Below are positions 2,037-19,341 of a DNA stretch of 19,341 bases, in pieces (positions within the stretch are counted from its first letter, which is position 1; the number at the start of each line of letters is the position of its first letter). This DNA is from a virus (lineage: Duplodnaviria; Heunggongvirae; Uroviricota; Caudoviricetes), in IMG/VR virus record IMGVR_UViG_2700989509_000025, positions 1-19,341 of that record; one strand, given 5' to 3'. A program made the position numbers and the translations under genes. Under the pieces are notes generated by a model. The model did no database searches. It had not been told where the DNA came from and worked only from the letters and a program-made list of their open reading frames with translations.

Positions 2037-2131
2037 CTGGTAAAGTTCATGCGCTTGGTTCGCCTCGCGATACAGCTTTGCGAAGCGTACCGGGATTGAA
2101 GCAGTTTATGGCTAAAATTGCAAGAACTTTT

Positions 2132-2926: not shown

Positions 2927-2987
2927 ATCTGTCGCGGTCTCTATCCAGGACGCCAATCCCGACGCCAGATTTTGCTGGCGCGTGAGG

Positions 2988-3017
2988 AATATAGCCCCGG
3001 ATAACAGATTGAGTCAA
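2988..3017 (-). promoter_or_regulatory. PR'-like late promoter (probable site of Q engagement)
   Basis: Minus strand TTGACT (3012..3017) - 18 nt - TATATT (2988..2993); the -35 overlaps the stop codon of the Q-like gene. Confidence 0.6.
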
Positions 3018-3568: not shown

Positions 3569-3855
3569 AAATAACCTTCCTTTCTCCAGATTTCTTGTGT
3601 GCGAAAAACACCTTCTGCATGCATCAGGCGTAATTCTTCTTTGGTGTAATCGCTGGTTTTTACCCGCCCGTCGATTAAATCGTGGCATGAGCTACAGGCA
3701 ATCGCTGCCTGCATATCGTGTGGTTTTGTCGCTGTTCCGCACGTCCCCGCCAGCCTGTAATGCGCCAGCACAGAAGTTTCGGGATTGTGATTGCAGTAGC
3801 CAGGAATTCTGACGGTGCACATCTGCCCCCGCGCCGCTTTACGTAAATCCACCAT
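3565..3855 (-). CDS. YbcO-like (DUF1364) Cys/His-rich putative nuclease of the nin region
   Basis: 96-aa ORF MVDLRKAARGQMCTVRIPGYCNHNPETSVLAHYRL...ACSSCHDLIDGR; resembles recalled DLP12 YbcO; stop overlaps Q start (ATGA). Confidence 0.6.
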   Translation of the reverse strand: MVDLRKAARGQMCTVRIPGYCNHNPETSVLAHYRLAGTCGTATKPHDMQAAIACSSCHDLIDGRVKTSDYTKEELRLMHAEGVFRTQEIWRKEGYL

Positions 3856-4454
3856 TACGCAAACTCCAGTAACTGCGCGGCCACATTTTCGACTTCCTCC
3901 GGAGAGGAAAATTTACGGAACAGGATCCAGTTCCACAGCACATTCAGTACAGATTTATAAACCTGCTGAAACACGGTTTCGTCCATGTTCGCAAATGCGA
4001 TAGATTTTGCCCTGCGCCCACGACTACCATCAGGATAAATATGCTCGGTGTAAAATCCGGCCTGAATGGTTACCCATTCGCGAAAAGCGTCAAAGGACTT
4101 GAGTAAGGCCGTATCCCGGGTTCTGCAAGTCGTAACGGTGTTAAGGTATTGCTCTGCGGCATCACTCAGGGCTGGCGTATGTTCCCGACCTACTGATTCG
4201 CACAGGAAATCAACGAAACCGGACACCAGTTCTCGTTCGCGAGGCGTGATCGCCCCACCGTTCGGAGTCCAGTAATCGAATCCCAGTTGCAGGAGTTTGA
4301 AAAAACGCTTGTGGAATGCGTAGTTACGCACACGCTTAAAGTCTGCGTGTATCCACTCACCGATTTTGATTTGATGCAAAAAATCGCAACTCTCCGGCGT
4401 CGCCGGGAGAAGTAATCCGGAAGAGGTTTGTTTGACCAGTTGTATATGCGCCAT
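3855..4454 (-). CDS. nin-region phage protein of unknown function (possibly DUF1367-type)
   Basis: 199-aa ORF with SD GGAGAA 6 nt upstream of ATG at 4454; stop overlaps next start (TAATG). Family name from recollection only. Confidence 0.55.
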   Translation of the reverse strand: MAHIQLVKQTSSGLLLPATPESCDFLHQIKIGEWIHADFKRVRNYAFHKRFFKLLQLGFDYWTPNGGAITPRERELVSGFVDFLCESVGREHTPALSDAAEQYLNTVTTCRTRDTALLKSFDAFREWVTIQAGFYTEHIYPDGSRGRRAKSIAFANMDETVFQQVYKSVLNVLWNWILFRKFSSPEEVENVAAQLLEFA

Positions 4455-4525
4455 CGTAGTTCTCCGCTGGCGCAGTAGAATGGGTGTTCAGCCCGTTATG
4501 TAGTATACCAGAATTAATGCCAATA

Positions 4526-4777
4526 CTAACAGGATGCTCTGACTCGCAATTCATCCAGCAGTTTATCATTTCCCATAATGTCACTTACCCTCATCGGTAA
4601 AAAAATTGCCTTTCGACCATTACGATACATCATTGATTTTGGGGTTTCAGGGAAGTAATCCATTTCGACTATAACTGACAGGTCATCACGACGTATGACT
4701 GCGTATTTGCAACTAAATAGTTTCTTTATTTTTTCCACGATGCCTCCGAGTTTATAAGTACAAACGGTTATATCCAC
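4526..4777 (-). CDS. Hypothetical small protein (start uncertain)
   Basis: 83-aa ORF in AT-rich spacer; codon at 4777 is GTG with no clear SD; internal ATGs also lack SD. Confidence 0.25.
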   Translation of the reverse strand: MDITVCTYKLGGIVEKIKKLFSCKYAVIRRDDLSVIVEMDYFPETPKSMMYRNGRKAIFLPMRVSDIMGNDKLLDELRVRASC

Positions 4778-4920
4778 ATAGAGACAAAAATATTAATCTG
4801 AAAAATATTTATTTCACGCCGTATATTTGATTATTTAATGTGCAGGTACAATGACTTTTATTTTTTGTTGTGTATATAATCAAATATATGGTTATTTTTC
4901 ACCCTGCGCATTCAGCGCGC

Positions 4921-4946
4921 AACAAAAAACCCGCCGAAGCGGGTTT
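4921..4946 (-). terminator. Intrinsic terminator downstream of hok
   Basis: On minus strand AAACCCGC-ttcg-GCGGGTTT followed by TTTTTTGTTG. Confidence 0.6.
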
Positions 4947-5013
4947 AGTGCGGGTGCGTTAAGGATGCCTGACACATGAGAGGTGGCGAGGGATTTCTCC
5001 CCCGCCTGGTCTC

Positions 5014-5169
5014 TTACTCCTCAGGTTCGTAAGCTGTGAAGACAGCGACCTCCGTCTGGCCGGTTCGGATTCGTACCTCGCAGAGGTCTTTCCTCGTTAC
5101 CAGTGCCGTCACTATGACGGTTAAACAGATGACGATCAGGGCGATTAACATCGCCTTTTGCTGCTTCAT
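5014..5169 (-). CDS. hokD: Hok/Gef-family type I toxin (HokD/RelF-like small membrane peptide)
   Basis: 51-aa product MKQQKAMLIALIVICLTVIVTALVTRKDLCEVRIRTGQTEVAVFTAYEPEE matches recalled HokD; SD AAGGAG 9 nt upstream of ATG at 5169. ORF track extends in frame to 5226 (19 extra codons). Confidence 0.8.
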   Translation of the reverse strand: MKQQKAMLIALIVICLTVIVTALVTRKDLCEVRIRTGQTEVAVFTAYEPEE

Positions 5170-5345
5170 AGCCTGCTTCTCCTTGCCTTTCGGCACGTAA
5201 GAGGCTAACCTACGTGTGTAGAGCATAGATATGGCCTCAGATTAATGTTAAGCGTCTTGCCGGACGCGTAATGTTAACTGGGGCTTTTCTCTATCTGCCT
5301 TTTGGTGTTCATGCCTGAGGCAGATAGCCTCAAGCACCCGCAGCA

Positions 5346-5374
5346 ATTCTAACTATCCAATAGATCAATGCCAA
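5346..5374 (-). promoter_or_regulatory. Candidate sigma70 promoter for hok mRNA
   Basis: Minus strand TTGGCA (5369..5374) - 17 nt - TAGAAT (5346..5351); would give a ~170-nt structured leader containing a 9-bp inverted repeat (CTATCTGCC...GGCAGATAG). Confidence 0.4.
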
Positions 5375-5726
5375 CTTCTTTTCCTGCAACATCTCTCATC
5401 ATAAGTGACCCAAATTCATCCAATCAGCACAAAAGAAACATTTAAAGCGTGAATGCTACCGAACGTTCATTTCAATTACATCGTTTTGATTTTTAACAGT
5501 TTTCACCTCAACAAATCAAATGGCATTAGCATTCATCATGGAAGAAAGACTGATAAAAATGATCATTTTCAATGACTTATGATCACACCGGGTATTGCCA
5601 AGTCATTCCTTTTACGCCAGGATACCCACAAGTGAGTAGTCGAGGAGAGTTTGCCAATTTTTGCGATATAAATTTCAATGCCCGAAGAACCATTAATTGT
5701 TAATTGATTCTGTATAAGGTATTAAC

Positions 5727-6824
5727 ATGACAATTTCATATATTCCTATTCTGAAAGCGAAACGTTCTGAGTTATCAGCTTTATCGCAGCTATCCATTGA
5801 AAAGAAATCAAAAATTTTGCCATTACTCGAAATTGAACCAGTGCCAATTGACCCTGATTCAGGTATTGCCTTAAAGAGTTATAACGAGACTCTTATAGAG
5901 TTCGGAAAGAAAGTCTCAAAATCTTGCTCAGATATGCAAGGTGTTTATATTGATGGATTATTAATTGAAGAGCATTTTATTTCTCCTGAAGATCATTACC
6001 CTATAATAAATGCGGTTAATCAAGTTAGAGATATGGGGATAAGAGTTATTCCTGTCAGTTCACCAACTCGCCCATCTAACTATAAAAGAGCGATTGATGA
6101 ATTAATGCAGAATGAAATATGCTTGAGATTAACCACGTTAGATCTGGTTAACCCACAATTAATAACGCATTACATTAATCATCTGGGAATTCCTTTATCA
6201 AATATTGATATAATTATTGACTTAAGAGATGAGTTAACCGAGGATAAAATTAATTCCGGCGAACTATATACTTTGGCAATGGGATTGATAAACAATCTGG
6301 CGCACCTCAATGAATACAGAAAAGTGATTCTTTCTGGGGGTTCATTTCCTACAGATCTCAGTGATATTTCTGTTGGTCTATATTCTCAACCTCGAATCGA
6401 GTGGATTTTATGGCAGAGTTTAATGAATAGAAAAGAACTTGCCAGAAATGTGATTTATAGTGATTATGGAGTACAGCACCCCGACTTTAATAGGCTTTCG
6501 ACGCGATTCCCTAGCGTATCTGCCAGCGTCAGATACTCTGGAGATAATGACTTTTGGGTATTTCGAGGAAGAGTAGCTAATCGCTTTGGTTATGAACAAT
6601 ATGGTAAACATAGTGAGGATATTCTTGCTCATCGAGAATATTCAGGGCCTACATTCTGTGCGGGAGATAGAGACATAGAATATTATGCAAACGAGTATCA
6701 AGCCTACAAAGCCAATCCCTCTGGTAACTATAAATTTGGTAGCCCAGAGGTATGGCGTAGGATTGGGCAAAACCATCACATAACTAAGGTTGTTGAGCAA
6801 CTCGCCACTCTTTACGGGCTTTAA
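5727..6824 (+). CDS. Beta-family-like protein (P4 Beta / sce7725-type, by recollection); candidate defense component
   Basis: 365-aa ORF in markedly AT-rich DNA; N-terminus MTISYIPILKAKRSELSAL; SD AAGG about 8 nt upstream; 3' end overlaps the convergent gene by 41 bp. Confidence 0.6.
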   Translation: MTISYIPILKAKRSELSALSQLSIEKKSKILPLLEIEPVPIDPDSGIALKSYNETLIEFGKKVSKSCSDMQGVYIDGLLIEEHFISPEDHYPIINAVNQVRDMGIRVIPVSSPTRPSNYKRAIDELMQNEICLRLTTLDLVNPQLITHYINHLGIPLSNIDIIIDLRDELTEDKINSGELYTLAMGLINNLAHLNEYRKVILSGGSFPTDLSDISVGLYSQPRIEWILWQSLMNRKELARNVIYSDYGVQHPDFNRLSTRFPSVSASVRYSGDNDFWVFRGRVANRFGYEQYGKHSEDILAHREYSGPTFCAGDRDIEYYANEYQAYKANPSGNYKFGSPEVWRRIGQNHHITKVVEQLATLYGL

Positions 6825-7362
6825 GTTTAACTCGAACAGCTTCACGAAGCTCGCCAACATCCATACTATTGGCGAGTTTTGACCATAAGACGCGTTTAGG
6901 TTTATTTTTCAAATTCTGTAGCTCCCCTACATCACTTAATAGGGAAAGCAATTCATCTTTCCAAAGAAGCATTGTTAAGGAAAGTTTGTCCACTTGTGGA
7001 TTCAACTTGCTAGTTCGAATTGTTTTTAAATGGATACCTTGCCGTGCACCTTGCGTAACTTGCTTTATCCCCCACCATGATGGAACTATGCTTAAAGCAT
7101 CATAAAGATGGCAATCAGAGACAACCAAAGTTACTTTATCCATCACTGATGAGTAATGTTGCACCTGCGCTGGTAATCTGAGCAAGTTATCACTCTTGCT
7201 CTTCAACTCATAACCATGTATAAGCCCATTGATCACTGCTATATCAGCTCTGCTAGCCCCTAGATTCATCGTAAACTCATCAATGATTAGGGTGTCAGGA
7301 TCTTTATGATGATCTCTCAGAATCTTGGCATGCACAGCCTTTCTTACATCAATGTCTCTCAT
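6784..7362 (-). CDS. sce7726-type protein with PD-(D/E)xK-like nuclease motif; candidate defense component
   Basis: 192-aa ORF, AT-rich; contains D (in LIIDEF) followed about 20 aa later by E-L-K (GYELKSKSD), the spacing of PD-(D/E)xK cores; also WWGI and LLW blocks I associate with sce7726-type proteins. Weak RBS. Confidence 0.55.
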   Translation of the reverse strand: MRDIDVRKAVHAKILRDHHKDPDTLIIDEFTMNLGASRADIAVINGLIHGYELKSKSDNLLRLPAQVQHYSSVMDKVTLVVSDCHLYDALSIVPSWWGIKQVTQGARQGIHLKTIRTSKLNPQVDKLSLTMLLWKDELLSLLSDVGELQNLKNKPKRVLWSKLANSMDVGELREAVRVKLKARKEWRVAQQP

Positions 7363-7684
7363 ACCATAGTTGCGCTTTCATCGACTCTCTCAAGCCATGA
7401 TTCTATATCATGGTTCGCATGAATGCCATTTGATATGACCAGTGGTTAAACATTGCACAGAAAAGTGGATGTGTATTTTAACAAAAGCAATGACGGCTAA
7501 CCATGTTGGTATGTCGATAAAATGTTTCAACGTAAGCATTATCTGTTCCGCCCTTTCGGGCGGCCTCCTGATGTTCTGAGGGTGCAGAAATCCCTCCGGT
7601 TAAGGATTAAATTTTATTTACAGAACTGAATTTAATTATTCAGATATACGTATCTGTAACCTTACTAACCTACTCACTGGATGC

Positions 7685-8158
7685 CTATTTCATAAAAATA
7701 ATCCAGTGGGTTTTATCGTTTTTTCCTGTTCGTTGACCGATAACAGGTTTTCTGTCGGTCAGTGCCAATATCTGGCGAACAGGTATTTGCGTTTCATTCC
7801 ATTTAAAAATCAGAACGCCGTATGGACGCAACACACGAAAGGCTTCTTTAAATCCCTGCCGCAAATCATCACGCCAGGTATCTTTATTCAGCCGTCCATA
7901 TTTCTTTCCCATCCAGGCGTTATCACCAACACGCTCAAGATGCGGAGGATCGAATATAACCATCGAAAAAGATGCGTCTGCAAATGGTAGTGCACGAAAA
8001 TCAGCTATCAGATCAGGACTGATAATCAGGCGTCGTCCATCACACAATGTGTGCTCTTCCTTTCTGATATCGCTAAATATCGCCCGGTCGTCATTCTTAT
8101 CGAACCAGAACATGCGACTGCCACAGCACATATCAAGAATGGTTGCCGGTGCACTCAC
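7685..8158 (-). CDS. Small phage DNA methyltransferase (Dam-like, N6-adenine or N4-cytosine class)
   Basis: 157-aa ORF with GTG start preceded by AGGAGG; motif I-like ILDMCCGSR and motif IV-like VIFDPPHL; GTGA overlap with upstream gene. Confidence 0.65.
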   Translation of the reverse strand: MSAPATILDMCCGSRMFWFDKNDDRAIFSDIRKEEHTLCDGRRLIISPDLIADFRALPFADASFSMVIFDPPHLERVGDNAWMGKKYGRLNKDTWRDDLRQGFKEAFRVLRPYGVLIFKWNETQIPVRQILALTDRKPVIGQRTGKNDKTHWIIFMK

Positions 8159-8571
8159 TGCGCTACCTCCTGAAAATTACCCTGATAGAAAGCCAGTACA
8201 CGCTGCATAGCTTCGCTCTTCCGGCACTCGCGACAGATTATATTCAGGCGCCTGTCGTAGCGGCGTATTTCTCCGTCTGGTAATGAATAAACCAGGTCCG
8301 GGTCGCTCTTTTTTTTCACTGCTGCTTTCGACATCTTTTTGCGGGCCTTTATCCAGTCCTTACGTGCCTGTTCAGACGGAAATAACCCGTAGCCGGAGTT
8401 GTATAAATCGCCACTGGCAACCAGCTCTCTGGCAAGAACACTCATCAGATATCTTGTCGCACCTGTCTTGGCTTCCAGTTGCCGTAACGTCTCGCGACCG
8501 CTCAGACGTACAAGTTCAACAACCTGCCCTTTAATTTTTTCCCGCTCTTCTGGTGTAAATACTTTTGCCAT
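8155..8571 (-). CDS. Phage hypothetical protein
   Basis: Track ORF 8155..8586 uses TTG; preferred start is ATG at 8571 preceded by GGAGG (8 nt); 138 aa, basic, C-terminal ICRECRK. Confidence 0.55.
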   Translation of the reverse strand: MAKVFTPEEREKIKGQVVELVRLSGRETLRQLEAKTGATRYLMSVLARELVASGDLYNSGYGLFPSEQARKDWIKARKKMSKAAVKKKSDPDLVYSLPDGEIRRYDRRLNIICRECRKSEAMQRVLAFYQGNFQEVAQ

Positions 8572-8586
8572 AAGCGCCTCCGGCAA

Positions 8587-9357
8587 TCACTTTTCCGATA
8601 CAACACGGCGGGAAGAATCAGTAATCTGTCGAACAATATCCCGGTGCTTGTTCAGCTCCCGCAGCGCGGCGCAGACTCGCTCCCACTTCTGAACATCACT
8701 TTTCGCCCTGCGCAGCGCCAGGTTTGCCCTGCGAAGGGACGGAAAAATCAGCTCATCTGCTTGCGTTTCGGTAAACGATGGCAACGGCTGCACAATGTCC
8801 GCCACAGTTTCTGTTTTAATTTCTTCCTGTGTTGCGGCTTCCCGGACTGGTAACGCAGCACCTGCTGGCTGAGGAAAGGCCTTACCATCACTTTCCGTTA
8901 CCAGCGCGGCTTTCGGCTCTGCTGGTAAATTATCGCCCGGCATGCAGTAACGAAATCTACCGTTCTGATTAACGCGTGCCAGCCGCCCCGTTGCGGTTAC
9001 CACCGCCAGCGTGGAAGCAACCTTGCGAGTACTGACACCGAACTTACCCGCTATTTCTTCACAGGTTTTAGCCCCCTCCTGAGCGATAAACTCAATCATC
9101 ATGTTAGCGCTAACTTTTGGAGCGACCTCTTCGGTCAGCATATCCTGTGTTTCAGATTTTACTGGCCGCTCTTCGGTTACCCGGGATTCACCTTCGACAG
9201 CCAGAAACCAGGTGTGACCCGTTTTATCAACAACGCCATTTTTTTTGAGCTCCCACAGTTCGTTGATAACTTCTTCACGGCTGATATCAATTCGTGCCGC
9301 CAGTTCAACAGAATTGGCTTTTCCCATCGCTTTCAGTGCATGTAATACGGTTTCCAT
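8587..9357 (-). CDS. Phage protein with N-terminal winged-helix-like domain (possibly DUF1627-type)
   Basis: 256-aa ORF, SD GAGGTGA 8 nt upstream; N-terminus METVLHALKAMGKANSVELAARIDISREEVINELWELKKNG looks like a wHTH. Confidence 0.55.
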   Translation of the reverse strand: METVLHALKAMGKANSVELAARIDISREEVINELWELKKNGVVDKTGHTWFLAVEGESRVTEERPVKSETQDMLTEEVAPKVSANMMIEFIAQEGAKTCEEIAGKFGVSTRKVASTLAVVTATGRLARVNQNGRFRYCMPGDNLPAEPKAALVTESDGKAFPQPAGAALPVREAATQEEIKTETVADIVQPLPSFTETQADELIFPSLRRANLALRRAKSDVQKWERVCAALRELNKHRDIVRQITDSSRRVVSEK

Positions 9358-9382
9358 CGAAAATTCACCTCGTTAAAAATTC

Positions 9383-10123
9383 TCACATACCCTGACGTCC
9401 AACGTTTGACCGCCAGCTCTCCCAGTTAAAATTCACCCAACGACCACCGTTCATGGTCATCCGGTCCATAATCCTCTCACCAAGAAGCGTGCTCATTGCG
9501 GCATGATTCAGGTTTGTCAGCATCCCGACACTGCGCAGTGATGCCGTCCGGCGGTCAACAATCTGGTGCAGTACCACCTGCTCGTTTTTCGTCTCACGCT
9601 GGATGCCAATTTCGTCAAGAACCAGGAGGTCCACTTCGCACAGTTCACGCAAAAATTTTTCGCCTGACTGCCCGTCGTCATAGCTGGCGTGCAGGGCGCT
9701 CATAACATCAGCCACGGTAACCACAATCACTGTCTGACCGTCTTTCAACAGGCGATTCCCGATAGCTGCCGCTAAGTGATTCTTCCCGGTACCAGGTTTT
9801 CCGCTGAACGCAAAATTTGTACACCCGGTCATCAGTTCATCGGCGATGGATTTCGCCTGGCTTAACGCGTATCGCTGGCCGTCGTTCTGCACCTGGTAAT
9901 TCGCAAACGAGCATTTACGGTGCAACGGCTGGATGCCTGAGCGATTCAGAATTTTTTCCACCCGCAACTGACAATTCAGGCGGTTGATCTCCTCGCTACG
10001 TTTCTGGCCTTCAGCAAGTTGCCACTCGCGCCACTCCGCAACCGTTCTGAATGGGGCGGTTACATGTGGTGGGGTCAGTCTGCGGATACGCTCCAGAACG
10101 CCTCCTGTCGCAATATTTTTCAT
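9383..10123 (-). CDS. DnaC-like replicative helicase loader (IstB-like AAA+ ATPase; YdaV-like)
   Basis: 246-aa ORF with Walker A FSGKPGTGKNHLAAAIG and Walker B DLLVLDEIG; immediately follows the replisome-organizer gene. Confidence 0.8.
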   Translation of the reverse strand: MKNIATGGVLERIRRLTPPHVTAPFRTVAEWREWQLAEGQKRSEEINRLNCQLRVEKILNRSGIQPLHRKCSFANYQVQNDGQRYALSQAKSIADELMTGCTNFAFSGKPGTGKNHLAAAIGNRLLKDGQTVIVVTVADVMSALHASYDDGQSGEKFLRELCEVDLLVLDEIGIQRETKNEQVVLHQIVDRRTASLRSVGMLTNLNHAAMSTLLGERIMDRMTMNGGRWVNFNWESWRSNVGRQGM

Positions 10124-10129
10124 GGCCTG

Positions 10130-10918
10130 TTACCCCCTGAAGCCTGGCGGGATCGCACTGTCCGGCAACGAGACGGTGTTAACCTGTCGGAGCAACGTCT
10201 CAGGCCGAACACCTTTCGGTGCGAACAAGCCCTGGTATTCATTGGCAATGCTGTGTCGAATCACCTGCTCAGGTGTAAAACCCTGCTGACGGAATTTTTC
10301 CAGTTCCCGTATCGCCCCGTTAGCGCCCTGCTCCGTTCGAATCGGTTTTCGCAATGCCTGCCTGAACTGAACCCACTCATGCCAGAGTGTTTCCGGCAAC
10401 CAGTCAGGCAGCTCGATAGCCTCCGGCTCGAATTTTTTAGACGCTCGTTTTTGGCGAGGGGGATTTAGGGGGAGATCAGTATTTATATCTTCCTCTTCCT
10501 CTTCCTCTGGTAACGCTTTTTGATCCGTTTGTGTAACGCTGCCAGCGTTACCTTTTCGTTTCAGTTCGCGTATTTTTGTAACTCGCTCGTTTGTAACCGC
10601 CCGTTTTTTAGAGCTTTTTCCGTTATGACGTTCAAAGTTAGGTAGAGAAAGCCCACCGTCATTTTCGACCAGCCATCCAACCTGAATTAACGCATCAGCA
10701 AAACCAGCCATAAAAGTGATGCGATCTATTGCACTTTTTGTAACGCCGCGAGCGTTACAATCTGCATTACCGTCTATCATTTGTTGATCCGCCCATGCCC
10801 AGAAGCGAATAACCTTCCCTAATGCGGCATCTGGATCAATATTCAGAATCTCAGCAAGCCTGAATATTTCCGGCTTATCCGGCGTAATAACCTCGAGCTT
10901 TATCCAGTTTGAAGCCAT
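10130..10918 (-). CDS. Replication initiator / replisome organizer (lambda O-like function; YdaU-like)
   Basis: 262-aa ORF with acidic linker PEEEEEEDIN; position between cII-like gene and DnaC-like loader; contains two copies of a 19-bp palindrome, with a third just upstream. Confidence 0.65.
   Translation of the reverse strand: MASNWIKLEVITPDKPEIFRLAEILNIDPDAALGKVIRFWAWADQQMIDGNADCNARGVTKSAIDRITFMAGFADALIQVGWLVENDGGLSLPNFERHNGKSSKKRAVTNERVTKIRELKRKGNAGSVTQTDQKALPEEEEEEDINTDLPLNPPRQKRASKKFEPEAIELPDWLPETLWHEWVQFRQALRKPIRTEQGANGAIRELEKFRQQGFTPEQVIRHSIANEYQGLFAPKGVRPETLLRQVNTVSLPDSAIPPGFRG
10533..10551. repeat. 19-bp palindrome GTAACGC-N5-GCGTTAC, copy 1 (inside initiator gene)
   Basis: gtaacgctgccagcgttac; extra GTAAC half-sites at 10510..10516, 10578..10582, 10593..10597. 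Confidence 0.8.
10740..10758. repeat. 19-bp palindrome GTAACGC-N5-GCGTTAC, copy 2 (inside initiator gene)
   Basis: gtaacgccgcgagcgttac. Confidence 0.8.
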
Positions 10919-10931
10919 TTGTTTTCACCTT

Positions 10932-10950
10932 GTAACGCTCGCAGCGTTAC
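10932..10950. repeat. 19-bp palindrome GTAACGC-N5-GCGTTAC, copy 3 (noncoding, 14 nt upstream of initiator start, next to its SD)
   Basis: gtaacgctcgcagcgttac. Confidence 0.8.
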
Positions 10951-10995
10951 ATTTAACTGATACCGAACAAAACAATCCGGCACGATTAATTTCAA

Positions 10996-11418
10996 TCAAT
11001 GCACTACGACAGAATCGCCGGGCGACCCACCACCGCTGAAATGTGCTTTCCGGTAAACGGCCTGGACTGCATCATCATGCGCATCAATTGCCGTACTCAA
11101 CGCTTCCTGCGCCGCCAGTAATGCACGGCGTTCCAAGGTATCGAAGATGCAGAGTCGGTGACGCAGCTCGCGCGGAAGAATTGCCAGAACCGCAGGGATC
11201 AGTTTCTGAATTTTTTCCCTTTGCGCTTTCGTTTCACCTTTCAACCAACGGTGATAGATATTCTGCTGATTGTTCCAGTCCTTGCCTGGTACAAGGGGCA
11301 ATTCGCCGCCCCCCTGGCGCAGATATTCTTCAGTAATTGCGTTAGCGACCCACGCCTGCCCTTTTTCGGCTGCCAGGGCTAACAACACTGATTCGATGTG
11401 CTCATGCCTGATTTTCAT
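10996..11418 (-). CDS. YdaT-like protein (cII-position gene of Rac-type immunity region)
   Basis: 140-aa ORF directly downstream of cro-like gene with ATGA overlap; same position and size as recalled Rac ydaT. Confidence 0.6.
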   Translation of the reverse strand: MKIRHEHIESVLLALAAEKGQAWVANAITEEYLRQGGGELPLVPGKDWNNQQNIYHRWLKGETKAQREKIQKLIPAVLAILPRELRHRLCIFDTLERRALLAAQEALSTAIDAHDDAVQAVYRKAHFSGGGSPGDSVVVH

Positions 11419-11657
11419 GAATCAACCGCTCCTATGCTGTTTTCGCTATGCTTACCGTCTGGGGGGAATACATCGTCAAGTCCACAATGAGCGCCAAGCC
11501 GATTAAGGGTAGAAACAATTTTTCTGCACTCCTCTAGTCCAGGGGTACGAAAATTTGCTTCGTAATTTGCCAGTCGGCTTTGTATCCACCCTAACTGAAC
11601 AGCAAGTTGTCTTTGAGACAGCCCAAGCTGTTTTCGATATGTTGAAATTTTGTTCAT
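11415..11657 (-). CDS. Cro-like HTH regulator (YdaS-like)
   Basis: 80-aa ORF, HTH segment LGLSQRQLAVQLGWIQSRLANYE; SD GGAGG 7 nt upstream; divergent from repressor gene. Confidence 0.7.
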   Translation of the reverse strand: MNKISTYRKQLGLSQRQLAVQLGWIQSRLANYEANFRTPGLEECRKIVSTLNRLGAHCGLDDVFPPDGKHSENSIGAVDS

Positions 11658-11753
11658 TGAAAACCTCCGATGACAATTTTAAACACATCTTGTGTTATAT
11701 GGTCAAGCTGTTTTGTGTTTTGTGTAAATCACGATTCGTGATACAAGGATGCA
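11658..11753. promoter_or_regulatory. Divergent immunity promoter/operator region
   Basis: Minus-strand promoter TTGACC (11701..11706) with TAAAAT/TTAAAA around 11676..11682; palindromes AACACA-tct-TGTGTT (11682..11696) and ATCACGA-t-TCGTGAT (11728..11742). Confidence 0.55.
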
Positions 11754-12173
11754 ATGGAAAAAGAAAACGAAAAAATTGCCGCTAGTAGGCTCAATGACAA
11801 AATTGCAATGCGTCTTAAAGAGCGCAGGCAGAAGCTTGGTTTATCTCAAGGAAAACTTGCTGAAATCTGCGGATGGACGCAATCGCGTATAGGTAACTAT
11901 GAGGCGGGTAGCAGAAATGTTGGAGTGCATGACGCTGTCGTATTGGGAAAGGCACTTGGCATATCTCCTCCTGAGCTCCTCTTTGGAGAACAGGAATCTT
12001 CTGAATTGTGGTTAAATGAATCCCAACGAAAACTTCTTGAGTTGTTTAACCAGCTACCGGGCTCAGAACAACAACGAATGATTGAGCTATTTGAAGTCCG
12101 GCTAAAAGAAATCGATGAGTATGTAGAAAAATATTTGAGAGGCAGGCTTAAAGATAATCCCCCACCGGAGTAA
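11754..12173 (+). CDS. Prophage repressor, XRE-family HTH (RacR-position), no obvious S24 peptidase domain
   Basis: 139-aa ORF, HTH LGLSQGKLAEICGWTQSRIGNYEAG; SD AAGGA upstream; divergent from cro-like gene. Confidence 0.7.
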   Translation: MEKENEKIAASRLNDKIAMRLKERRQKLGLSQGKLAEICGWTQSRIGNYEAGSRNVGVHDAVVLGKALGISPPELLFGEQESSELWLNESQRKLLELFNQLPGSEQQRMIELFEVRLKEIDEYVEKYLRGRLKDNPPPE

Positions 12174-12203
12174 TGATCTTGCTATCACAGTAATATGCCA
12201 ATC

Positions 12204-12228
12204 AGCCCGCTATCAGCGGGCTTTTTTT
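12204..12228 (+). terminator. Intrinsic terminator after repressor gene
   Basis: AGCCCGC-tatca-GCGGGCT followed by TTTTTTT. Confidence 0.7.
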
Positions 12229-12270
12229 GTACCATCATCATATGACACCCACCACAAAACACATTTCGTG

Positions 12271-12299
12271 TTGACACAAGAAAACGCATTGTGTTTAAT
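12271..12299 (+). promoter_or_regulatory. PL-like early-left promoter with overlapping operator-like palindromes
   Basis: TTGACA (12271..12276) - 17 nt - TTTAAT (12294..12299); flanked by AACAC-atttc-GTGTT and ACACAAG...TTGTGT inverted repeats. Confidence 0.55.
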
Positions 12300-12479
12300 A
12301 AGCATATCCAAACAACGCCCCACCAGAGAACGGCAGGACAATACCTCGAGTTATCCAGCCACTGAACAGGGCTAAGTAGCCAGCCTGAGGCATACGAACA
12401 TGACGGCAGTTGTTGATTGATACAAAGCGCAGTAGATAAAACGTTCCGCCACCCGGCGTTAAGGGGAAATGAGGTCAAC

Positions 12480-12632
12480 ATGGATACTATCGATCTTGGC
12501 AACAACGAATCTCTGGTATGTGGCGTGTTTCCCAATCAGGACGGCACATTCACCGCCATGACGTATACCAAAAGCAAATCGTTTAAAACCGAAGCTGGCG
12601 CACGTCGCTGGCTTGCCAAAAATACCAGCTAA
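12480..12632 (+). CDS. Small early-left protein (YdaF-like)
   Basis: Internal ATG at 12480 of track ORF 12417..12632, preceded by GAGG; 50 aa MDTIDLGNNESLVCGVFPNQDGTFTAMTYTKSKSFKTEAGARRWLAKNTS. Confidence 0.45.
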   Translation: MDTIDLGNNESLVCGVFPNQDGTFTAMTYTKSKSFKTEAGARRWLAKNTS

Positions 12633-13040
12633 ACCATTTATTGGATTAATTCAATATTCTTGCTGTAGGGGTATAGCCGAGGCCACCAAAGCCCGGAGGT
12701 GGTGAAATAAAACCGGGCACAACACGAAGGCGCATTTCCGGTATCCATAAAGAGTCGGTCTTGTCTGTTAAATTTAAATGGTGGGAGTGCGCCTCCGGTT
12801 GTAAATAACGACATTGCTATGTGTAGTCTTTGGCGGCATCAGTTCTACTCCGTGGCTGCCCTGCCGCCCCTTTTTAAAGTGAATTTTGTGATGCGGTGAA
12901 TGCGGCTAAGCGCACGCGGCACAGTTAAAAGCATCAGTGTTATGGGTGGATTATCCGGCGTTAATTGTTAACTGGTTAACGTCACCTGGAGGCACCAGGC
13001 ACCGCATCGACAAAATTCATTTGTAAAAATGGAGATAATT

Positions 13041-13262
13041 ATGATTGCTCATCACTTCGGAACTGATGAAATACCACGTCAGTGTGTGACTCCTGGCGAT
13101 TATGTTCTTCATGAAGGTCGGACATATATCGCCTCGGCAAACAATATTAAAAAGCGAAAACTTTATATTCGTAGCCTGACTACAAAAACATGCATTTCTG
13201 ACTGCATGATTAGAGTCTTCCTCGGTCGTGATGGTTTACCTGTAAAGGCGGAGTCATGGTAA
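13041..13262 (+). CDS. kilR: KilR-like cell-division inhibitor
   Basis: 73 aa from ATG at 13041 (SD GGAG); [35 protein letters not shown]... matches recalled Rac KilR. Confidence 0.75.
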
Positions 13263-13432
13263 TGACTAAGAAAATAAAATGTGCTTATCACCTTTGCAAT
13301 AAAGAAATTGAAGAAAGCAAAATCATTACAAGACCACTTCATTTCATGCGTGGAGTTATACCAACGACGGAAATGAAAAAATATTGTAGTGAAATCTGTG
13401 CCGAAAAAGACCAGATGGCACACGAACTTTAA
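13262..13432 (+). CDS. YdaE-like small Cys-rich (zinc-binding) protein
   Basis: Hand-found 56-aa ORF (below track cutoff): [56 protein letters not shown]; start overlaps kilR stop (TAATG). Confidence 0.55.
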   Translation: MTKKIKCAYHLCNKEIEESKIITRPLHFMRGVIPTTEMKKYCSEICAEKDQMAHEL

Positions 13433-13506
13433 TTAACTGACTATCCGAAACTGAATTTATGCCAGCAATGGCAGGGATTCGCTCAACCTTAATTAAGGAG
13501 AAAAAC

Positions 13507-13782
13507 ATGATTACCAGTTATGAAGCCACTGTTGTTACTACTGATGACGTTGTTCACGAAGTTATCCTGGAAGGAAAACTCATTGGCTACGTGATTAAAA
13601 CAGAAAATAAAGAAACCCCATTCACCGTGGTTGATATCGACGGTCCATCAGGCAACGTTAAAACACTTCACGAAGGTGTAAAAAAAATGTGCATGGTGCA
13701 CATCATAAAGAATATTCCAGCAGAGAAAAAAGACAGGATTATGGCAACTCTGATTGAGATGGAACAAAAAGGCGAAATCTGA
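13507..13782 (+). CDS. racC: RacC-like protein
   Basis: 91 aa from ATG at 13507 preceded by AAGGAG; MITSYEATVVTTDDVVHEVILEGKLIGYVIK... matches recalled Rac RacC. Confidence 0.75.
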   Translation: MITSYEATVVTTDDVVHEVILEGKLIGYVIKTENKETPFTVVDIDGPSGNVKTLHEGVKKMCMVHIIKNIPAEKKDRIMATLIEMEQKGEI

Positions 13783-13882
13783 ATGGGAAAAAGGCCTGCA
13801 CTCAGCGCAGGCCTGAGTCAAGAACCCGGGACATTTATTCATCACTCGCAATAATTTTAATCTGAGTTGAGGTTAAAAAACA

Positions 13883-16555
13883 ATGAGCACCGATAAACAA
13901 GTTTTCCCACTGTATTACGAAGCCAAAAATGACAAAGTAAGAAAACGTCTCGGTATTAAAGGCGGTTTTTACTGGGCTGAAGCGAAAAAATTATCCATTG
14001 CCATCTCCCGTGGTGCTGTTGCGATTGACGATGCTGGCTACGATGAAGATGACTTTAAAAAACCTGTTCGCGTCAATTTGCCCGTTGTTGATGACCTCCC
14101 ACCAGAAGGCGTATTTGATACGGAATTCTGCAACCGATACGAAAAAGGCGGGGAGGATGGCATCACAATGGTATTTATCGCCCCGTCACCCTCTGTTCAG
14201 GATAAACCAGCCAGCACTGACAATACCAACATCAACGGCGAAGACATGACTGAGATTGAGGAGAGCATGCTTCTGCCTGTCTCCGGTCAGGAACTGCCCA
14301 TTCGTTGGCTTGCTCAACACGGCAGCGAAAAACCAGTAACGCACGTTTCACGCGACGAACTCCAGGCATTACACATTGCACGGGCTGAAGAACTACCGGC
14401 TGTTACTGCCCTGGCTATTTCGCATAAAACCAGTCTGCTCGACTCGCTGGAGATTCGCGACCTCCACAAACTGGTTCGTGACACTGACAAAGTTTTCCCT
14501 AATCCTGGTAATTCAGACCTGGGACTAATAACTGCTTTTTTCGAAGCATACCTGGACGCTGACTACACTTATCGGGGTCTGCTGACAAAAGAGTGGATGA
14601 AAGGAAATCGTGTTTCACGCATCACCCGCACGGCTTCCGGTGCTAATGCTGGCGGTGGGAACAAAACCGATCGCAATCCGAATTTAGTACACACCCTCGA
14701 CACACTGGATGTGGAGATTGCAGCAGCCACACTTCCGATGGATTTTAATATTTATGAAATTCCGGGCAGCGTTTATCGTCGCGCAAAAGAAGTAGTCCTG
14801 AACAAAGAAAGTCCGTTCAAAGAATGGTCCGCAGCACTTCGTGCAACCCCGGGTATTCTGGACTATTCCCGCGCCGCTATTTTTGCACTTATCCGAAGCG
14901 CACACCCTGAATTTTATCACTACCCGGGACGCCTTCAGGGGTATATCAACGCCTATTTGACGGAAACTGATCACGAGAACCCCAGCAAGGAAACTCTCAC
15001 AGCTGCCCGGCATACACCGGAAAAAGATATCCTGGAAGAAATTAACCGCGAGGTGGTTACTGAGCGTGAAACAGAAGAAGAAAAACCACAACCATCTGAC
15101 GCAATGGCAGGTGAACAGGCAACAACTGAAACAATGGAACCGGATACAACTGAACATGGCCAGAACGCGCAGTCGCTGGATGCTCAGTCGCAGGTGAGTT
15201 CCGCTAACCAAGTAAAAGTCACCGCTGACGAAGTAAACAAAATTATGCAGGCAGCCAATATCAGCCAGCCTGACGCCGATAAGTTACTTGCTGTATCGCG
15301 TGGTGAATTTGTTGAGGGGATTAGCGACCCTAATGATCCGAAATGGGTCAAGGGGATCCAGACTCGCGATTCTGTGAACCAGAACCAGCATGAATCGGAA
15401 CGGAACGACCAAAAAGCGGAACAAAACAGCCCAAATGCGTTACAAAACGAGCCAGAAACGAAACAATCCGAACCAGTAGCGCAACAGGAACCGGAAAAAG
15501 TCTGCACCGCCTGCGGTCAGAGCGGTGGCGGCAACTGCCCTGATTGTGGCGCGGTGATGGGCGACGCAACATACCAGGAAACATTCGGTGAAGAGAATCA
15601 GGTTGAAGCTAAGGAAAAAGATCCGGAGGAAATGGAAGGCGCTGAACATCCGCACAATGAGAATGCTGGCAGCGATCCGCATCGCGATTGCAGTGATGAA
15701 ACTGGCGAAGTCGCAGATCCCGTAATCGTAGAAGACATAGAGCCAGGTATTTATTACGGAATTTCGAATGAGAATTACCACGCGGGTCCCGGTGTCAGTA
15801 AGTCTCAGCTCGATGACATTGCTGATACTCCGGCACTGTATTTGTGGCGTAAAAATGCCCCCGTGGACACTACAAAGACAAAAACGCTCGATTTAGGAAC
15901 CGCTTTCCACTGCCGGGTACTTGAACCGGAAGAATTCAGTAACCGCTTTATCGTAGCACCTGAATTTAACCGCCGTACAACCGCCGGAAAAGAAGAAGAG
16001 AAAGCGTTTCTGATGGAATGCGCAAGCACAGGAAAAACGGTTATCACTGCGGAAGAAGGCCGGAAAATTGAACTCATGTATCAAAGCGTTATGGCTTTGC
16101 CGCTGGGGCAATGGCTTGTTGAAAGCGCCGGACACGCTGAATCATCAATTTACTGGGAAGATCCGGAAACAGGAATTTTGTGTCGGTGCCGTCCGGACAA
16201 AATTATTCCTGAATTTCACTGGATCATGGACGTGAAAACCACAGCGGATATTCAACGATTCAAAACGGCTTATTACGACTACCGCTATCACGTTCAGGAT
16301 GCATTCTACAGTGACGGTTATGAAGCACAGTTTGGCGTGCAGCCAACTTTCGTTTTTCTGGTTGCCAGCACAACTGTTGAATGCGGACGTTATCCGGTTG
16401 AGATTTTCATGATGGGCGAAGAAGCAAAACTGGCAGGCCAGCAGGAATATCACCGCAATCTGCGGACCCTGGCTGACTGCCTAAATACCGATGAATGGCC
16501 AGCTATTAAGACGTTATCACTGCCCCGCTGGGCTAAGGAGTATGCAAATGATTAA
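13883..16555 (+). CDS. recE: RecE exodeoxyribonuclease VIII
   Basis: 890-aa ORF; acidic low-complexity middle; C-terminal PD-(D/E)xK-type exonuclease domain ([13 protein letters not shown]); overlaps recT start as in Rac. Confidence 0.85.
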
Positions 16556-17357
16556 GCAACCACCTATCGCAAAAGCCGATCTGCAAAAAACTCAGGGAAA
16601 CCGTGCACCAGCAGCAGTTAACGATAAGGATGTGCTGTGCGTGATTAACAGCCCGGCAATGAAAGAGCAACTGGCAGCAGCTCTTCCACGCCATATGACG
16701 GCTGAACGTATGATCCGTATCGCCACCACAGAAATTAGTAAAGTTCCGGCGTTAGGAAACTGTGACACTATGAGTTTTGTCAGTGCGATCGTACAGTGTT
16801 CACAGCTCGGACTTGAGCCAGGTAGCGCCCTCGGTCATGCATATTTACTGCCTTTTGGTAATAAAAACGAAAAGAGCGGTAAAAAGAACGTTCAGCTAAT
16901 CATTGGCTATCGCGGCATGATTGATCTGGCTCGCCGTTCTGGTCAAATCGCCAGCCTGTCAGCCCGTGTTGTCCGTGAAGGTGACGAGTTTAGCTTCGAA
17001 TTTGGCCTTGATGAAAAGTTAATACACCGCCCGGGAGAAAACGAAGATGCCCCGGTTACCCACGTCTATGCTGTCGCAAGACTGAAAGACGGAGGTACTC
17101 AGTTTGAAGTTATGACGCGCAAACAGATTGAGCTGGTGCGCAGCCTGAGTAAAGCTGGTAATAACGGGCCGTGGGTAACTCACTGGGAAGAAATGGCAAA
17201 GAAAACGGCTATTCGTCGCCTGTTCAAATATCTGCCCGTATCAATTGAGATCCAGCGTGCAGTATCAATGGATGAAAAGGAACCACTGACAATCGATCCT
17301 GCAGATTCCTCTGTATTAACCGGGGAATACAGTGTAATCGATAATTCAGAGGAATAA
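16548..17357 (+). CDS. recT: RecT single-strand annealing protein
   Basis: 269 aa from ATG at 16548 (SD AAGGAG; ATG overlaps recE stop); [24 protein letters not shown]... matches recalled RecT. Confidence 0.9.
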
Positions 17358-17413
17358 TTCAGCCTGGCGGTGTAATGCACCGCCAACTTGAAATATTTTT
17401 TATGAGAAAAATT

Positions 17414-17608
17414 ATGAGATATGACAATGTTAAACCATGTCCATTTTGTGGTTGTCCATCAGTAACGGTGAAAGTCATTTCAGGATATTACCGAGCGAAG
17501 TGTAACGGATGCGAATCCCGAACCGGTTATGGTGGAAGTGAAAAAGAAGCACTCGAAAGATGGAATAAACGAACCACTGGAAATAATAACGGAGGTGTTC
17601 ATGTATAA
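17414..17608 (+). CDS. ralR: RalR/Lar restriction-alleviation protein
   Basis: 64 aa from internal ATG at 17414: MRYDNVKPCPFCGCPSVTVKVISGYYRAKCNGCESRTGYGGSEKEALERWNKRTTGNNNGGVHV. Confidence 0.75.
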   Translation: MRYDNVKPCPFCGCPSVTVKVISGYYRAKCNGCESRTGYGGSEKEALERWNKRTTGNNNGGVHV

Positions 17609-17789
17609 AATTACCGCCACTATTGAAAAGGAAGGTGGCACTCCTACTAACTGGACAAGATATTCAAAATCTAAACTAACGAAATCAGAATGCGAAAAAA
17701 TGCTCTCAGGTAAAAAAGAAGCAGGCGTTTCCAGAGAGCAGAAAGTAAAACTGATAAATTTTAATTGCGAGAAACTTCAGTCCTCGTGA
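17601..17789 (+). CDS. ydaC: YdaC-like small protein
   Basis: 62 aa from ATG at 17601 preceded by GGAGG; start overlaps ralR stop. Confidence 0.65.
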   Translation: MYKITATIEKEGGTPTNWTRYSKSKLTKSECEKMLSGKKEAGVSREQKVKLINFNCEKLQSS

Positions 17790-17888
17790 ATTGCATTGTA
17801 TTCAAATTAAAACTTCATAGCTGATTATTAATAATCAACATCGGGCGTCAATTTCAGTCTAACATTGGCGCCTGCCAGAGGTGATGCG

Positions 17889-18104
17889 ATGGCACAAGTA
17901 ATCTTTAATGAAGAGTGGATGGTTGAATACGGCCTGATGCTTCGCACTGGTCTGGGGGCCAGACAAATTGAAGCATACCGCCAGAACTGTTGGGTGGAGG
18001 GCTTCCACTTCAAACGAGTATCTCCTTTAGGTAAGCCAGACAGCAAACGAGGGATTATCTGGTACAACTATCCAAAGATAAATCAGTTTATCAAAGACTC
18101 ATGA
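17889..18104 (+). CDS. xisR: Excisionase (XisR-like)
   Basis: 71 aa from ATG at 17889: [44 protein letters not shown]...; directly upstream of integrase. Confidence 0.75.
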
Positions 18105-18105
18105 T

Positions 18106-19341
18106 ATGTCTAAATTACCAACAGGTGTCGAGATTAGAGGTAGATACATTCGCATCTGGTTCATGTTTCGAGGAAAACGATGTCGGGAAACATTAAAAGG
18201 CTGGGAGATTACAAACAGTAATATTAAAAAGGCCGGAAATTTAAGAGCGCTGATAGTTCATGAAATAAACTCCGGTGAATTTGAGTATTTAAGACGTTTT
18301 CCCCAGTCCAGCACTGGGGCAAAAATGGTGACAACGAGAGTCATAAAAACGTTCGGAGAGCTTTGTGATATCTGGACAAAAATTAAAGAGACAGAGTTAA
18401 CAACAAACACAATGAAGAAAACGAAATCACAATTAAAAACACTCAGAATAATAATTTGTGAAAGTACCCTGATATCACATATTCGTTATAGCGATATCTT
18501 AAACTACCGGAATGAACTGCTGCATGGAGAAACGCTTTACCTGGATAATCCAAGATCCAACAAAAAAGGAAGAACCGTGCGCACAGTTGATAACTATATC
18601 GCCCTGCTCTGTTCGCTGTTACGTTTTGCGTATCAGTCGGGATTTATATCAACCAAACCATTTGAAGGAGTAAAAAAATTACAGCGAAACAGAATAAAGC
18701 CTGATCCGTTATCTAAAACAGAATTCAATGCATTAATGGAAAGTGAAAAAGGACAGAGCCAGAACATGTGGAAATTTGCAGTTTACTCAGGACTTCGTCA
18801 CGGGGAACTGGCAGCTCTGGCGTGGGAGGATGTGGATCTCGAAAAGGGAATAGTGAATGTCAGAAGAAACCTGACGATACTTGATATGTTCGGTCCCCCA
18901 AAAACAAATGCCGGGATCCGGACAGTAACACTACTGCAGCCTGCTCTTGAAGCACTGAAGGAGCAATACAAACTGACCGGGCATCATCGCAAAAGCGAAA
19001 TCACCTTTTATCATCGGGAGTACGGCAGAACCGAAAAGCAAAAACTGCATTTTGTTTTCATGCCCAGGGTGTGTAACGGAAAACAAAAACCTTATTACTC
19101 GGTAAGCAGTTTGGGGGCAAGGTGGAATGCAGCAGTAAAACGTGCTGGTATTCGCCGCCGTAATCCGTACCATACGCGGCATACTTTTGCCTGCTGGCTG
19201 TTGACGGCAGGAGCGAACCCGGCATTTATAGCCAGCCAAATGGGGCATGAAACTGCGCAGATGGTGTATGAAATTTACGGTATGTGGATTGATGACATGA
19301 ACGACGAACAGATAGCCATGTTGAATGCGCGGTTATCATAG
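18106..19341 (+). CDS. intR: Tyrosine-type site-specific integrase (IntR-like)
   Basis: 411-aa ORF ending at the window edge with stop; C-terminal catalytic region HTRHTFACWLL...MGHETAQMVYEIY with R, H-x-x-R and Y. Confidence 0.9.
   Translation: MSKLPTGVEIRGRYIRIWFMFRGKRCRETLKGWEITNSNIKKAGNLRALIVHEINSGEFEYLRRFPQSSTGAKMVTTRVIKTFGELCDIWTKIKETELTTNTMKKTKSQLKTLRIIICESTLISHIRYSDILNYRNELLHGETLYLDNPRSNKKGRTVRTVDNYIALLCSLLRFAYQSGFISTKPFEGVKKLQRNRIKPDPLSKTEFNALMESEKGQSQNMWKFAVYSGLRHGELAALAWEDVDLEKGIVNVRRNLTILDMFGPPKTNAGIRTVTLLQPALEALKEQYKLTGHHRKSEITFYHREYGRTEKQKLHFVFMPRVCNGKQKPYYSVSSLGARWNAAVKRAGIRRRNPYHTRHTFACWLLTAGANPAFIASQMGHETAQMVYEIYGMWIDDMNDEQIAMLNARLS

Follow-up and report, generated by a model that had tools for sequence, protein, structure and literature searches.

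A gap of about 400 bp (positions 12633 to 13040) in the early-left operon of a Rac-like lambdoid prophage very probably holds a dicF-kil module, that is, the gene of a small RNA (sRNA) of the DicF/KilS family with its terminator, followed by a folded leader, in the same arrangement as dicF-dicB in the Qin prophage. The prophage, integrated beside ttcA, makes up the window analyzed here (19,341 nucleotides, positions 1 to 19,341 of the IMG/VR virus record IMGVR_UViG_2700989509_000025), and the gap separates a DUF1391 gene (ydaF/ydfA-like) from the cell division inhibitor gene kilR. A preliminary description of the sequence had singled out this stretch as structured and devoid of open reading frames (ORFs), and the finding is real: no ORF of 60 or more amino acids (aa) lies within it on either strand, the longest being one of 58 aa on the minus strand (12638 to 12814), and the gap folds better than shuffled sequences (z = -4.2, with 0 of 100 shuffles equally stable). 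It is largely accounted for by known RNA elements, and an sRNA, one of the options proposed at that stage, turned out to be the correct one.

A DicF-family sRNA gene with a KilS-type 5' part

The terminator-like hairpin followed by Ts, as first described, is present (GGCGGCA at 12832-12838, TGCCGCC at 12862-12868 and TTTTT at 12871-12875) and corresponds to the terminator of a DicF-family sRNA. The Rfam DicF model (RF00039) matched the window with 60.9 bits, above its curated gathering threshold of 48 bits, while K-12 KilS itself reaches only 39.1 bits. The architecture is that of DicF, in which a G+C-rich hairpin and a U-run come after a single-stranded 5' part, and so is the position in the operon, with the DUF1391 gene before it, a cell division inhibitor after it and the dicF-dicB spacer in place. 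The window RNA agreed with the DicF family in every feature tested except the 5' seed.

The 5' part has a different affiliation. KilS of K-12 (98 nucleotides [nt]) aligns from its first base at 12781, in the orthologous position in the kilR 5' untranslated region, and is identical at 61 of the 64 positions between 12781 and 12844; past that point it has a different hairpin loop, UUUUUUUCUUGAAGUUCGG. More broadly, from 12659 on the window hardly differs from K-12 Rac, excepting that loop, and it is near-identical to K-12 Qin from 12829 to ca. 13021, i.e., from the dicF body to just before dicB. Upstream of 12829 the sequence is not Qin-like but near-identical to K-12 Rac, and therefore the window RNA combines the 5' part of KilS with the 3' part of DicF, as a natural hybrid. 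Other prophage contigs carry this hybrid too, and at their equivalent of position 12819 they have either G or A. KilS was detected by RNA interaction by ligation and sequencing (RIL-seq) on Hfq and verified by northern blot (PMC8175672); its authors concluded that it can be transcribed from its own promoter (Bar et al. 2021, PMC8175672), and an Hfq-dependent interaction with yncL has been reported for K-12 only (PMC8175672). In the window, a candidate extended -10 element, TGTTAAATT, sits 7 nt upstream of the position aligned with the K-12 KilS 5' end.

The terminator hairpin differs from that of K-12 DicF by four substitutions, two of which keep stem pairs (U.G to C-G and U-A to U.G). When the hairpin core was folded against the ftsZ leader, K-12 DicF gave four pairing blocks around the ftsZ ribosome-binding site, and the window RNA is predicted to keep 20 of the 21 DicF-ftsZ pairs. 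The predicted duplex has an energy of -33.8 kcal/mol for the window RNA versus -30.2 kcal/mol for K-12 DicF, and about 1% of shuffles match the window value. An RNAduplex comparison of the whole RNAs with ftsZ was uninformative because shuffles scored equally well, and the test was repeated on the hairpin core only. In Qin, DicF uses its 3' region to repress ftsZ and its 5' end to repress other targets (PMC5069750). The same study described Hfq binding of DicF, a 5' end generated by RNase E and an alternative 3' end generated by RNase III, and found that transcripts of the dicBF operon both stop at the sRNA terminator and read through it (PMC5069750).

The seed directly 5' of the hairpin (AUUGCUAUGUGUAGUC) matches the most conserved stretch of RprA and a seed common to many phage sRNAs. 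The string UGCUGUGUGUAGUC(U)UGGCGG was found in 84 distinct phage or prophage contexts (window 12802-12840; L003, L007, L013, L208 and L251-L357), across which UGCUGUGUGUAGUC is joined to many unrelated GGCGG...CCGCC terminator hairpins. This seed is identical to the most conserved stretch (nt ~50 to 80) of RprA, an sRNA of the host core genome. In the window, a segment of ~29 nt (AAAUAACGACAUUGCUAUGUGUAGUCUUUG) matches RprA nt 50 to 80 with one indel and two mismatches, and the matching stretch lies directly 5' of the terminator hairpin in both RNAs. Unlike RprA, the window RNA lacks the 5' stem-loops, which include the seed used for hdeD (PMC5861431), and its score with the RprA model (RF00034) is weak (30.5 versus 70). 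We found no link in the literature searched between KilS or DicF-type sRNAs and the RprA sequence. Compared with nearly all its relatives, the window seed carries a G-to-A change at 12819.

A folded leader between the sRNA and kilR

The ~150 nt that directly follow the U-run (12877 to 13022) are the same spacer that lies between dicF and dicB in Qin. This leader matched the Rfam STnc100 model (RF02076) over model positions 1-206 with 44.3 bits (E = 3.7e-8), and relatives of the same leader subtype score between 31 and 46 bits. It is predicted to fold into a closing helix (P1), three hairpins (P2, P5 and P6) and a pseudoknot, with a variable middle between P2 and P5. Both the fold and the invariant motifs of STnc100/PasD were found in it: the closing helix, P2, P5, P6, the pseudoknot complementarity, the invariant GGUGAAU and CACCNGGAGGCACCNGGCACC. 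The differences from STnc100/PasD are a P2 with GCGGCUAAGCGCACGC instead of CCCCCUNNGCGGNGGGG, a closing helix extended to ~22 bp and the position before an ORF (kilR or dicB) rather than before a terminator. In its structure, the leader is a domain of the STnc100/PasD type, even though it fails the curated score.

Folding and covariance analysis across relatives, suggested in the preliminary description, showed that the helices of the leader covary. In an alignment of 18 distinct relatives, 96.9% of the cells were paired and 19 pairs had changed on both sides (13 of the 22 in P1 and 5 in P5), a level reached by 0 of 500 shuffles, while structures slid by 1 to 3 columns paired only 32 to 41%. 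Citrobacter, Lelliottia and several IMG/VR phages preserve P1 with quite different sequences, and the arms of P1 pair better with their cognate partners (-27.5 kcal/mol) than with non-cognate ones (-18.4 kcal/mol). The pseudoknot, formed by a segment 3' of P2 with the P5 loop, was followed across ~170 family members (in L009-L248), which together present 111 distinct arm pairs, and the same contrast was seen (-7.6 versus -4.6 kcal/mol, p = 9e-31).

Several repeats pointed out initially can be read in terms of these helices. The two GTTAAC copies exist, at 12967 and 12975, but are not conserved as a repeat: the first is the conserved loop of P5 (UUGUUAACUGG, which also holds the pseudoknot arm 12968-12974), and the second is the P5 3' strand, within a covarying stem. 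A direct repeat bound by a protein was rejected, as in relatives the second copy changes together with the strand it pairs with. Likewise, the AGGCACC tandem (12990 and 12997) resolves to the P6 hairpin plus the start of the P1 3' arm, and the GCGG-rich repeats to the P1 and P2 stems. We also observed that the conserved 5' part of the sRNA (12791-12801, GCCUCCGGUUG) is complementary to 12983-12993 (CACCUGGAGGC), which covers the 5' side of P6 and its loop with the invariant GGAGG; judging from this complementarity, a contact between the two, in trans or in cis, is conceivable.

P6 is part of a motif, CACCNGGAGGCACCNGGCAC, whose N positions are always complementary among family members (G..C, U..A or A..U). 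The motif and the domain were found in at least 240 loci, in phages as well as in genera ranging from Escherichia to Pantoea, Erwinia and Rahnella. Some prophage regions of Enterobacterales carry two or three copies a few hundred bases apart (L082 225-1398, L139 2331-3272, L152, L058 and L104). Leaders of the kil/dicB type precede a Shine-Dalgarno-bearing ORF in 67 of 93 distinct contexts, at a median of 38 nt from the motif, mostly DicB (27 contexts) or KilR (20 contexts), and a terminator in 19; in canonical STnc100-type copies, a downstream terminator is more frequent.

For DicF of Qin, two 3' ends have been published, one at 53 nt by termination and another at 72 nt by RNase III processing of the full-length transcript (PMC5069750). 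When these ends are mapped onto the window sequence, the longer one (19 bases past the 53-nt end) falls after ~12889, in the middle of the 5' arm of the 22-bp P1. An RNase III cut inside P1 would explain the long and conserved closing helix of the kil/dicB-type subfamily and suits the requirements of this enzyme.

Table 1. Features of the sRNA-leader region and its neighbors (window coordinates)
Feature	Position	Strand	Basis or remark
Repressor-like helix-turn-helix gene	11754-12173	+	Early-left operon
DUF1391 gene (ydaF/ydfA-like), upstream neighbor of the gap	12480..12632	+	RefSeq annotation of the identical 493/89 locus
Upstream helix, 5' arm CAACACGAAGGCGCA, predicted to pair with 12785-12799	12722..12736	+	Minimum-free-energy folds; inverted repeat I6
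Candidate extended -10 element TGTTAAATT	12766..12774	+	Putative, inferred only
sRNA gene, long (KilS-length) form	12781..12875	+	K-12 kilS 5' end mapping; hairpin and T5 as 3' end
Seed AUUGCUAUGUGUAGUC	12813..12828	+	Rfam RprA alignment; local alignment to K-12 RprA; phage contexts
Rfam DicF match, RF00039, model positions 1-52 of 52	12818..12869	+	60.9 bits, E = 2e-11
sRNA terminator hairpin	12832..12868	+	Inverted repeat I13; -17 kcal/mol in a 59-nt RNA
ftsZ-complementary blocks (predicted), hairpin loop and 3' side	12841-12846, 12848-12852, 12857-12863, 12865-12868	+	
U-run of intrinsic terminator	12871..12875	+	Sequence
Closing helix P1, 5' arm, 22 bp	12877..12898	+	Fold; covariation
Hairpin P2 (GCGGC UAAGC GC-A-CGC)	12902..12917	+	100% paired, nearly invariant
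Pseudoknot arm CAGUUAA, pairs with 12968-12974	12922..12928	+	Inverted repeat I14
Hairpin P5, stem GGCGUUAA/UUAACGUC, loop UUGUUAACUGG	12957..12983	+	5/8 pairs changed on both sides
Hairpin P6 (CCUGG-AGGCA-CCAGG), 5 bp	12985..12999	+	Part of family motif CACCNGGAGGCACCNGGCAC
Closing helix P1, 3' arm, one bulged A at 13010	13000..13022	+	Fold; covariation
kilR Shine-Dalgarno GGAG	13031-13034	+	RefSeq annotation, identical locus; ORF list
kilR coding sequence	13041-13262	+	RefSeq annotation, identical locus; ORF list

Operon context and synteny

Over the 901 bases around the gap, identity is 100% with Escherichia coli O157:H7 493/89, among other strains, and 99.9% with O55:H7 CB9615. The early-left operon of the window is transcribed on the plus strand; the 5' part of its DUF1391 gene aligns with both ydfA and ydaF of K-12, and kilR is followed by ydaE, a frameshifted racC-like gene, recE, recT and ralR. 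In the same operon of K-12 Rac, ydaF and kilR are separated by sieB, which lies on the opposite strand, and a noncoding RNA gene, kilS (b4833), is annotated in the orthologous place, between sieB and kilR. The order of repressor, DUF1391 gene, sRNA, leader and cell division inhibitor is also found in Qin, phage Tritos, phiSTEC1589-Stx1c and Shigella phage 75/02, and DicF is annotated in the syntenic module of Tritos. In Sakai-like O157:H7 (L361 1734-3040, MB9-1), a gene of ~850 bp for a rha-family regulator lies exactly between the sRNA and leader, on one side, and kilR, on the other, and there the leader precedes rha and not kilR.

Set beside its two closest known systems, the window shares with Qin DicF (RF00039) the terminator hairpin with its loop, the ftsZ blocks, the downstream spacer and the operon position, but the DicF 5' seed is replaced by a KilS/RprA-like one, ydfB and ydfC are absent, and the downstream inhibitor is KilR rather than DicB. 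With KilS of K-12 it shares the orthologous position, the upstream DNA from 12659, the leader and kilR; K-12 differs by its hairpin loop, by the insertion of sieB between ydaF and the kilS region and by a G at the equivalent of 12819, where the window has A.

The upstream part of the gap

The statement that K-12 Rac carries sieB at this place was correct, and sieB is wholly missing from the window. A tblastn search with K-12 SieB gave no match in or near the gap (the matches elsewhere in the window had E values of 5.1 and 9.6), and homology to K-12 Rac resumes only at ~12659, ~45 nt upstream of the K-12 sieB start codon. A sieB remnant was rejected on these grounds. Of the K-12 sieB-kilS intergenic DNA, ~120 nt are kept. 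The 58-aa minus-strand ORF was also discarded as a protein, since its start codon and frame are not kept in relatives. In L194, L198, L206 and L213 the opening base of its first codon is missing from the alignment, which makes a loss of the ATG probable; its translation diverges past a gapped stretch in L310 and L198; and all four nucleotide differences from K-12 Rac within it change the amino acid.

A long-range CCGGAGG/CCTCCGG complement had also been reported in this part. CCTCCGG is indeed found at 12792-12798, but CCGGAGG is at 12693-12699 rather than at 12703-12709, and as a helix the pair is a chance-level match (by our own estimate, a few perfect 7-nt complements would be expected by chance within ~400 nt) that is absent from the minimum-free-energy fold. 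It was rejected; the conserved partner of 12785-12799 is instead 12722-12736. This upstream helix shows two compensatory changes across three lineages (G:C to A:U and A:U to G:C; L007 and L255) and brackets the putative promoter and the KilS 5' end, where it may guide the 5' processing of long transcripts.

Evidence against a DicF-type module

A number of observations weigh against the interpretation of the gap as a dicF-kil module. The first 11 to 12 nt of the Rfam match differ from K-12 DicF (UAUGUGUAGUC against UUUCUGGUGACG), which means that the DicF 5' seed for xylR and pykA is absent from the window. The G-to-A change in the replacement seed could weaken its function, one of the predicted ftsZ pairs is lost, and the leader misses the STnc100 gathering threshold (44.3 versus 47 bits). 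No noncoding RNA is annotated at this position by the Prokaryotic Genome Annotation Pipeline in the identical genome that we inspected, and none is named there in the feature lists of the other identical matches. A scan for consensus promoters gave no plus-strand promoter in the gap, and as TGTTAAATT went unreported by it, we treat the sRNA promoter as putative. The racC-like frameshift implies that parts of the operon may be decaying; in the RefSeq annotation of the identical locus, the frameshifted gene lies 3' of ydaE (~13507-13783). Finally, the expression, processing and targets proposed for the window copy are carried over from its homologues and should be taken as presumptive.

Alternative explanations

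The gap might instead be mainly a conditional terminator acting in cis (an attenuator), in which 12668-12691 pairs with 12828-12851, a segment made up of the 5' arm and loop of the terminator, so that early-left transcripts would lose the hairpin and run into kilR-recET while transcripts from 12781 would terminate. The two segments form a 24-nt inverted repeat (I1) with 75% complementarity, and in the 244-nt read-through RNA the terminator-less fold is 6 kcal/mol more stable, with a terminator pair probability of 0.001 compared to 0.74 to 0.97 in RNAs that begin at 12781 or 12722. Of the dinucleotide shuffles, 99.7% have a weaker upstream partner (0.3% were as good); however, several candidate pairings were inspected, which makes one at 0.3% less striking. 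Moreover, the prediction is a thermodynamic one and does not extend to relatives: the pairing is absent from Qin, K-12 Rac, L310, L007 and L208 (0.45 to 0.89 of shuffles at least as good), L310 combines the same hairpin with different upstream DNA, and in the close relative L334 the arm has three changes, none of them compensated, with significance lost (0.10). We have therefore rejected the idea that an antiterminator pairing with the terminator arm is a conserved feature, as the significance seen in the window does not carry over to relatives, and regard an attenuator as improbable. Of the earlier idea of a regulated terminator gating kilR, the terminator does hold, in the plain sense that an intrinsic one separates kilR from the early-left promoter. 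A put-like RNA as in phage HK022, which would make RNA polymerase resistant to terminators downstream, was also among the early suggestions and is now left without support. Like the leader, HK022 put is a structured RNA of a lambdoid early operon; the annotation of the Rac-like early-left operon includes no N gene, and the structured leader does lie upstream of a long operon. Nevertheless, there is no sequence or model match to put, the only Rfam matches in the gap at E values up to 1 are those to DicF and STnc100 and a weak one to RprA, and the leader is placed wrongly relative to the terminator, being downstream and not upstream of the only clear one in the gap. Besides, a relative with the same module encodes N (phiSTEC1589-Stx1c), and canonical members of the leader family often precede a terminator themselves, all of which makes this explanation very improbable.

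Just as hard to credit is a small-protein gene or a functionless, decayed remnant of sieB or of its control region. The 58-aa ORF lies on the strand that carries sieB in K-12 Rac, at the same place, and intergenic DNA between sieB and kilS has been kept; against this, SieB has no tblastn match at the locus, the ORF is unconserved, and the conserved parts of the gap are accounted for by RNA helices with compensatory changes. Such an explanation had been named beforehand as the one that would undo the noncoding interpretation, but neither SieB similarity nor a conserved protein was found. A different case is that of the leader as the functional RNA itself, either an STnc100/PasD-type sRNA released by RNase III or a cis-regulatory fold, for instance a binding element for a ligand or a protein, or a ribosome standby site (the invariant loop GGAGG), setting the translation of the inhibitor. 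It is favored by the spread of CACCNGGAGGCACCNGGCAC and its fold in Enterobacterales and phages, often in multiple copies, by the invariance of single-stranded positions alongside covarying stems and pseudoknot, and by the fact that STnc100 and PasD are regarded as trans-acting sRNAs in the literature. Canonical members often precede a terminator, like free-standing sRNAs, and the kil/dicB type precedes an ORF at a fixed distance. On the other hand, the score is under the Rfam threshold, and the kilR Shine-Dalgarno sequence is outside the fold and unpaired in the prediction. We see this as a possibility of lesser weight, which in any case adds to a dicF-kil module rather than excluding it. A broader reading would join an RprA-seed/DicF chimera, a functional pseudoknotted leader and a lineage-specific antiterminator; taken as a whole it is tentative and rather doubtful. 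Here, the DicF hairpin that targets ftsZ may have been joined to the seed UGCUGUGUGUAGUC of the more than 80 phage sRNA contexts, the leader may be an STnc100/PasD RNA with its own function (released by RNase III or controlling toxin translation), and 12668-12691 might act as an antiterminator, with only transcripts from the early promoter reaching kilR. If this were true, prophages would hold widespread mimics of the RprA seed that tap or compete with the RprA network of the host.

Proposed mechanism and implications

Returning to the dicF-kil module, the sRNA would either be made from a weak promoter of its own a short distance upstream or be cut by RNase E from the early-left transcript, which starts upstream of the DUF1391 gene, and its 3' end would be set by the intrinsic terminator (hairpin 12832-12868 plus U5). 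Together with Hfq it would repress ftsZ translation, and the separate 5' seed would act on other mRNAs. Polymerases that pass the terminator would transcribe the STnc100/PasD-type leader, whose P1 (22 bp) could be a substrate of RNase III; the cut would produce the longer 3' end of DicF and free the kilR-ydaE-racC-recET message from the RNA upstream, leaving the kilR ribosome-binding site 8 nt downstream of the helix. With a terminator between the sRNA and kilR, the toxic FtsZ inhibitor KilR would thus be kept low while sRNA synthesis is still allowed. The analysis of the window establishes family membership by covariance model, homology, synteny, helix covariation, the absence of sieB and the lack of a coding signal; for the expression and Hfq dependence of the sRNA, for termination and read-through and for the ends made by RNase E and RNase III, we relied on earlier publications about the homologues in Qin and K-12 Rac. 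We infer that these properties hold for the window copy, as we do its promoter and the effect of the cleavage on kilR.

The Rac-like prophages of O157:H7 and O55:H7 would in this way pair an sRNA with predicted action on ftsZ with the FtsZ-inhibiting KilR, the same two-pronged design as dicF-dicB in Qin, of which K-12 Rac keeps only a diverged form of the sRNA, KilS. Being missed by standard annotation, the window copy belongs in the count of DicF-family genes when dicF deletions or dosage in pathogenic E. coli are interpreted. Four dicF copies have been reported for enterohemorrhagic E. coli strains (PMC7873438); the prophages listed by Balasubramanian et al. are CP-933O, M and P, and the Rac-like one is not among them. 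The seed identical to RprA, on the one hand, and the covarying, pseudoknotted leader with its RNase III helix, on the other, could make the function of two widespread but poorly understood prophage RNA families accessible to direct tests.

Other RNA elements in the window

A full STnc100 copy (175.6 bits) was found elsewhere in the window, on the minus strand at 1404-1612, between three tRNA genes (1725-1973) and a terB-family gene, and phage P7 is arranged alike. It is abutted on the other strand by a match to AgvB (1344-1403, plus strand) that barely exceeds its threshold (56.2 versus 56). C4 antisense RNA, its a1b1 target and isrK were found together at 2796-2994 (minus strand), and the sok antitoxin RNA at 5164-5339 (minus strand), in a part of the identical locus where hokD is annotated. 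The RalA antitoxin sRNA (225 bits, 17607-17785) is antisense to the ralR/rcbA region, as in K-12 Rac.

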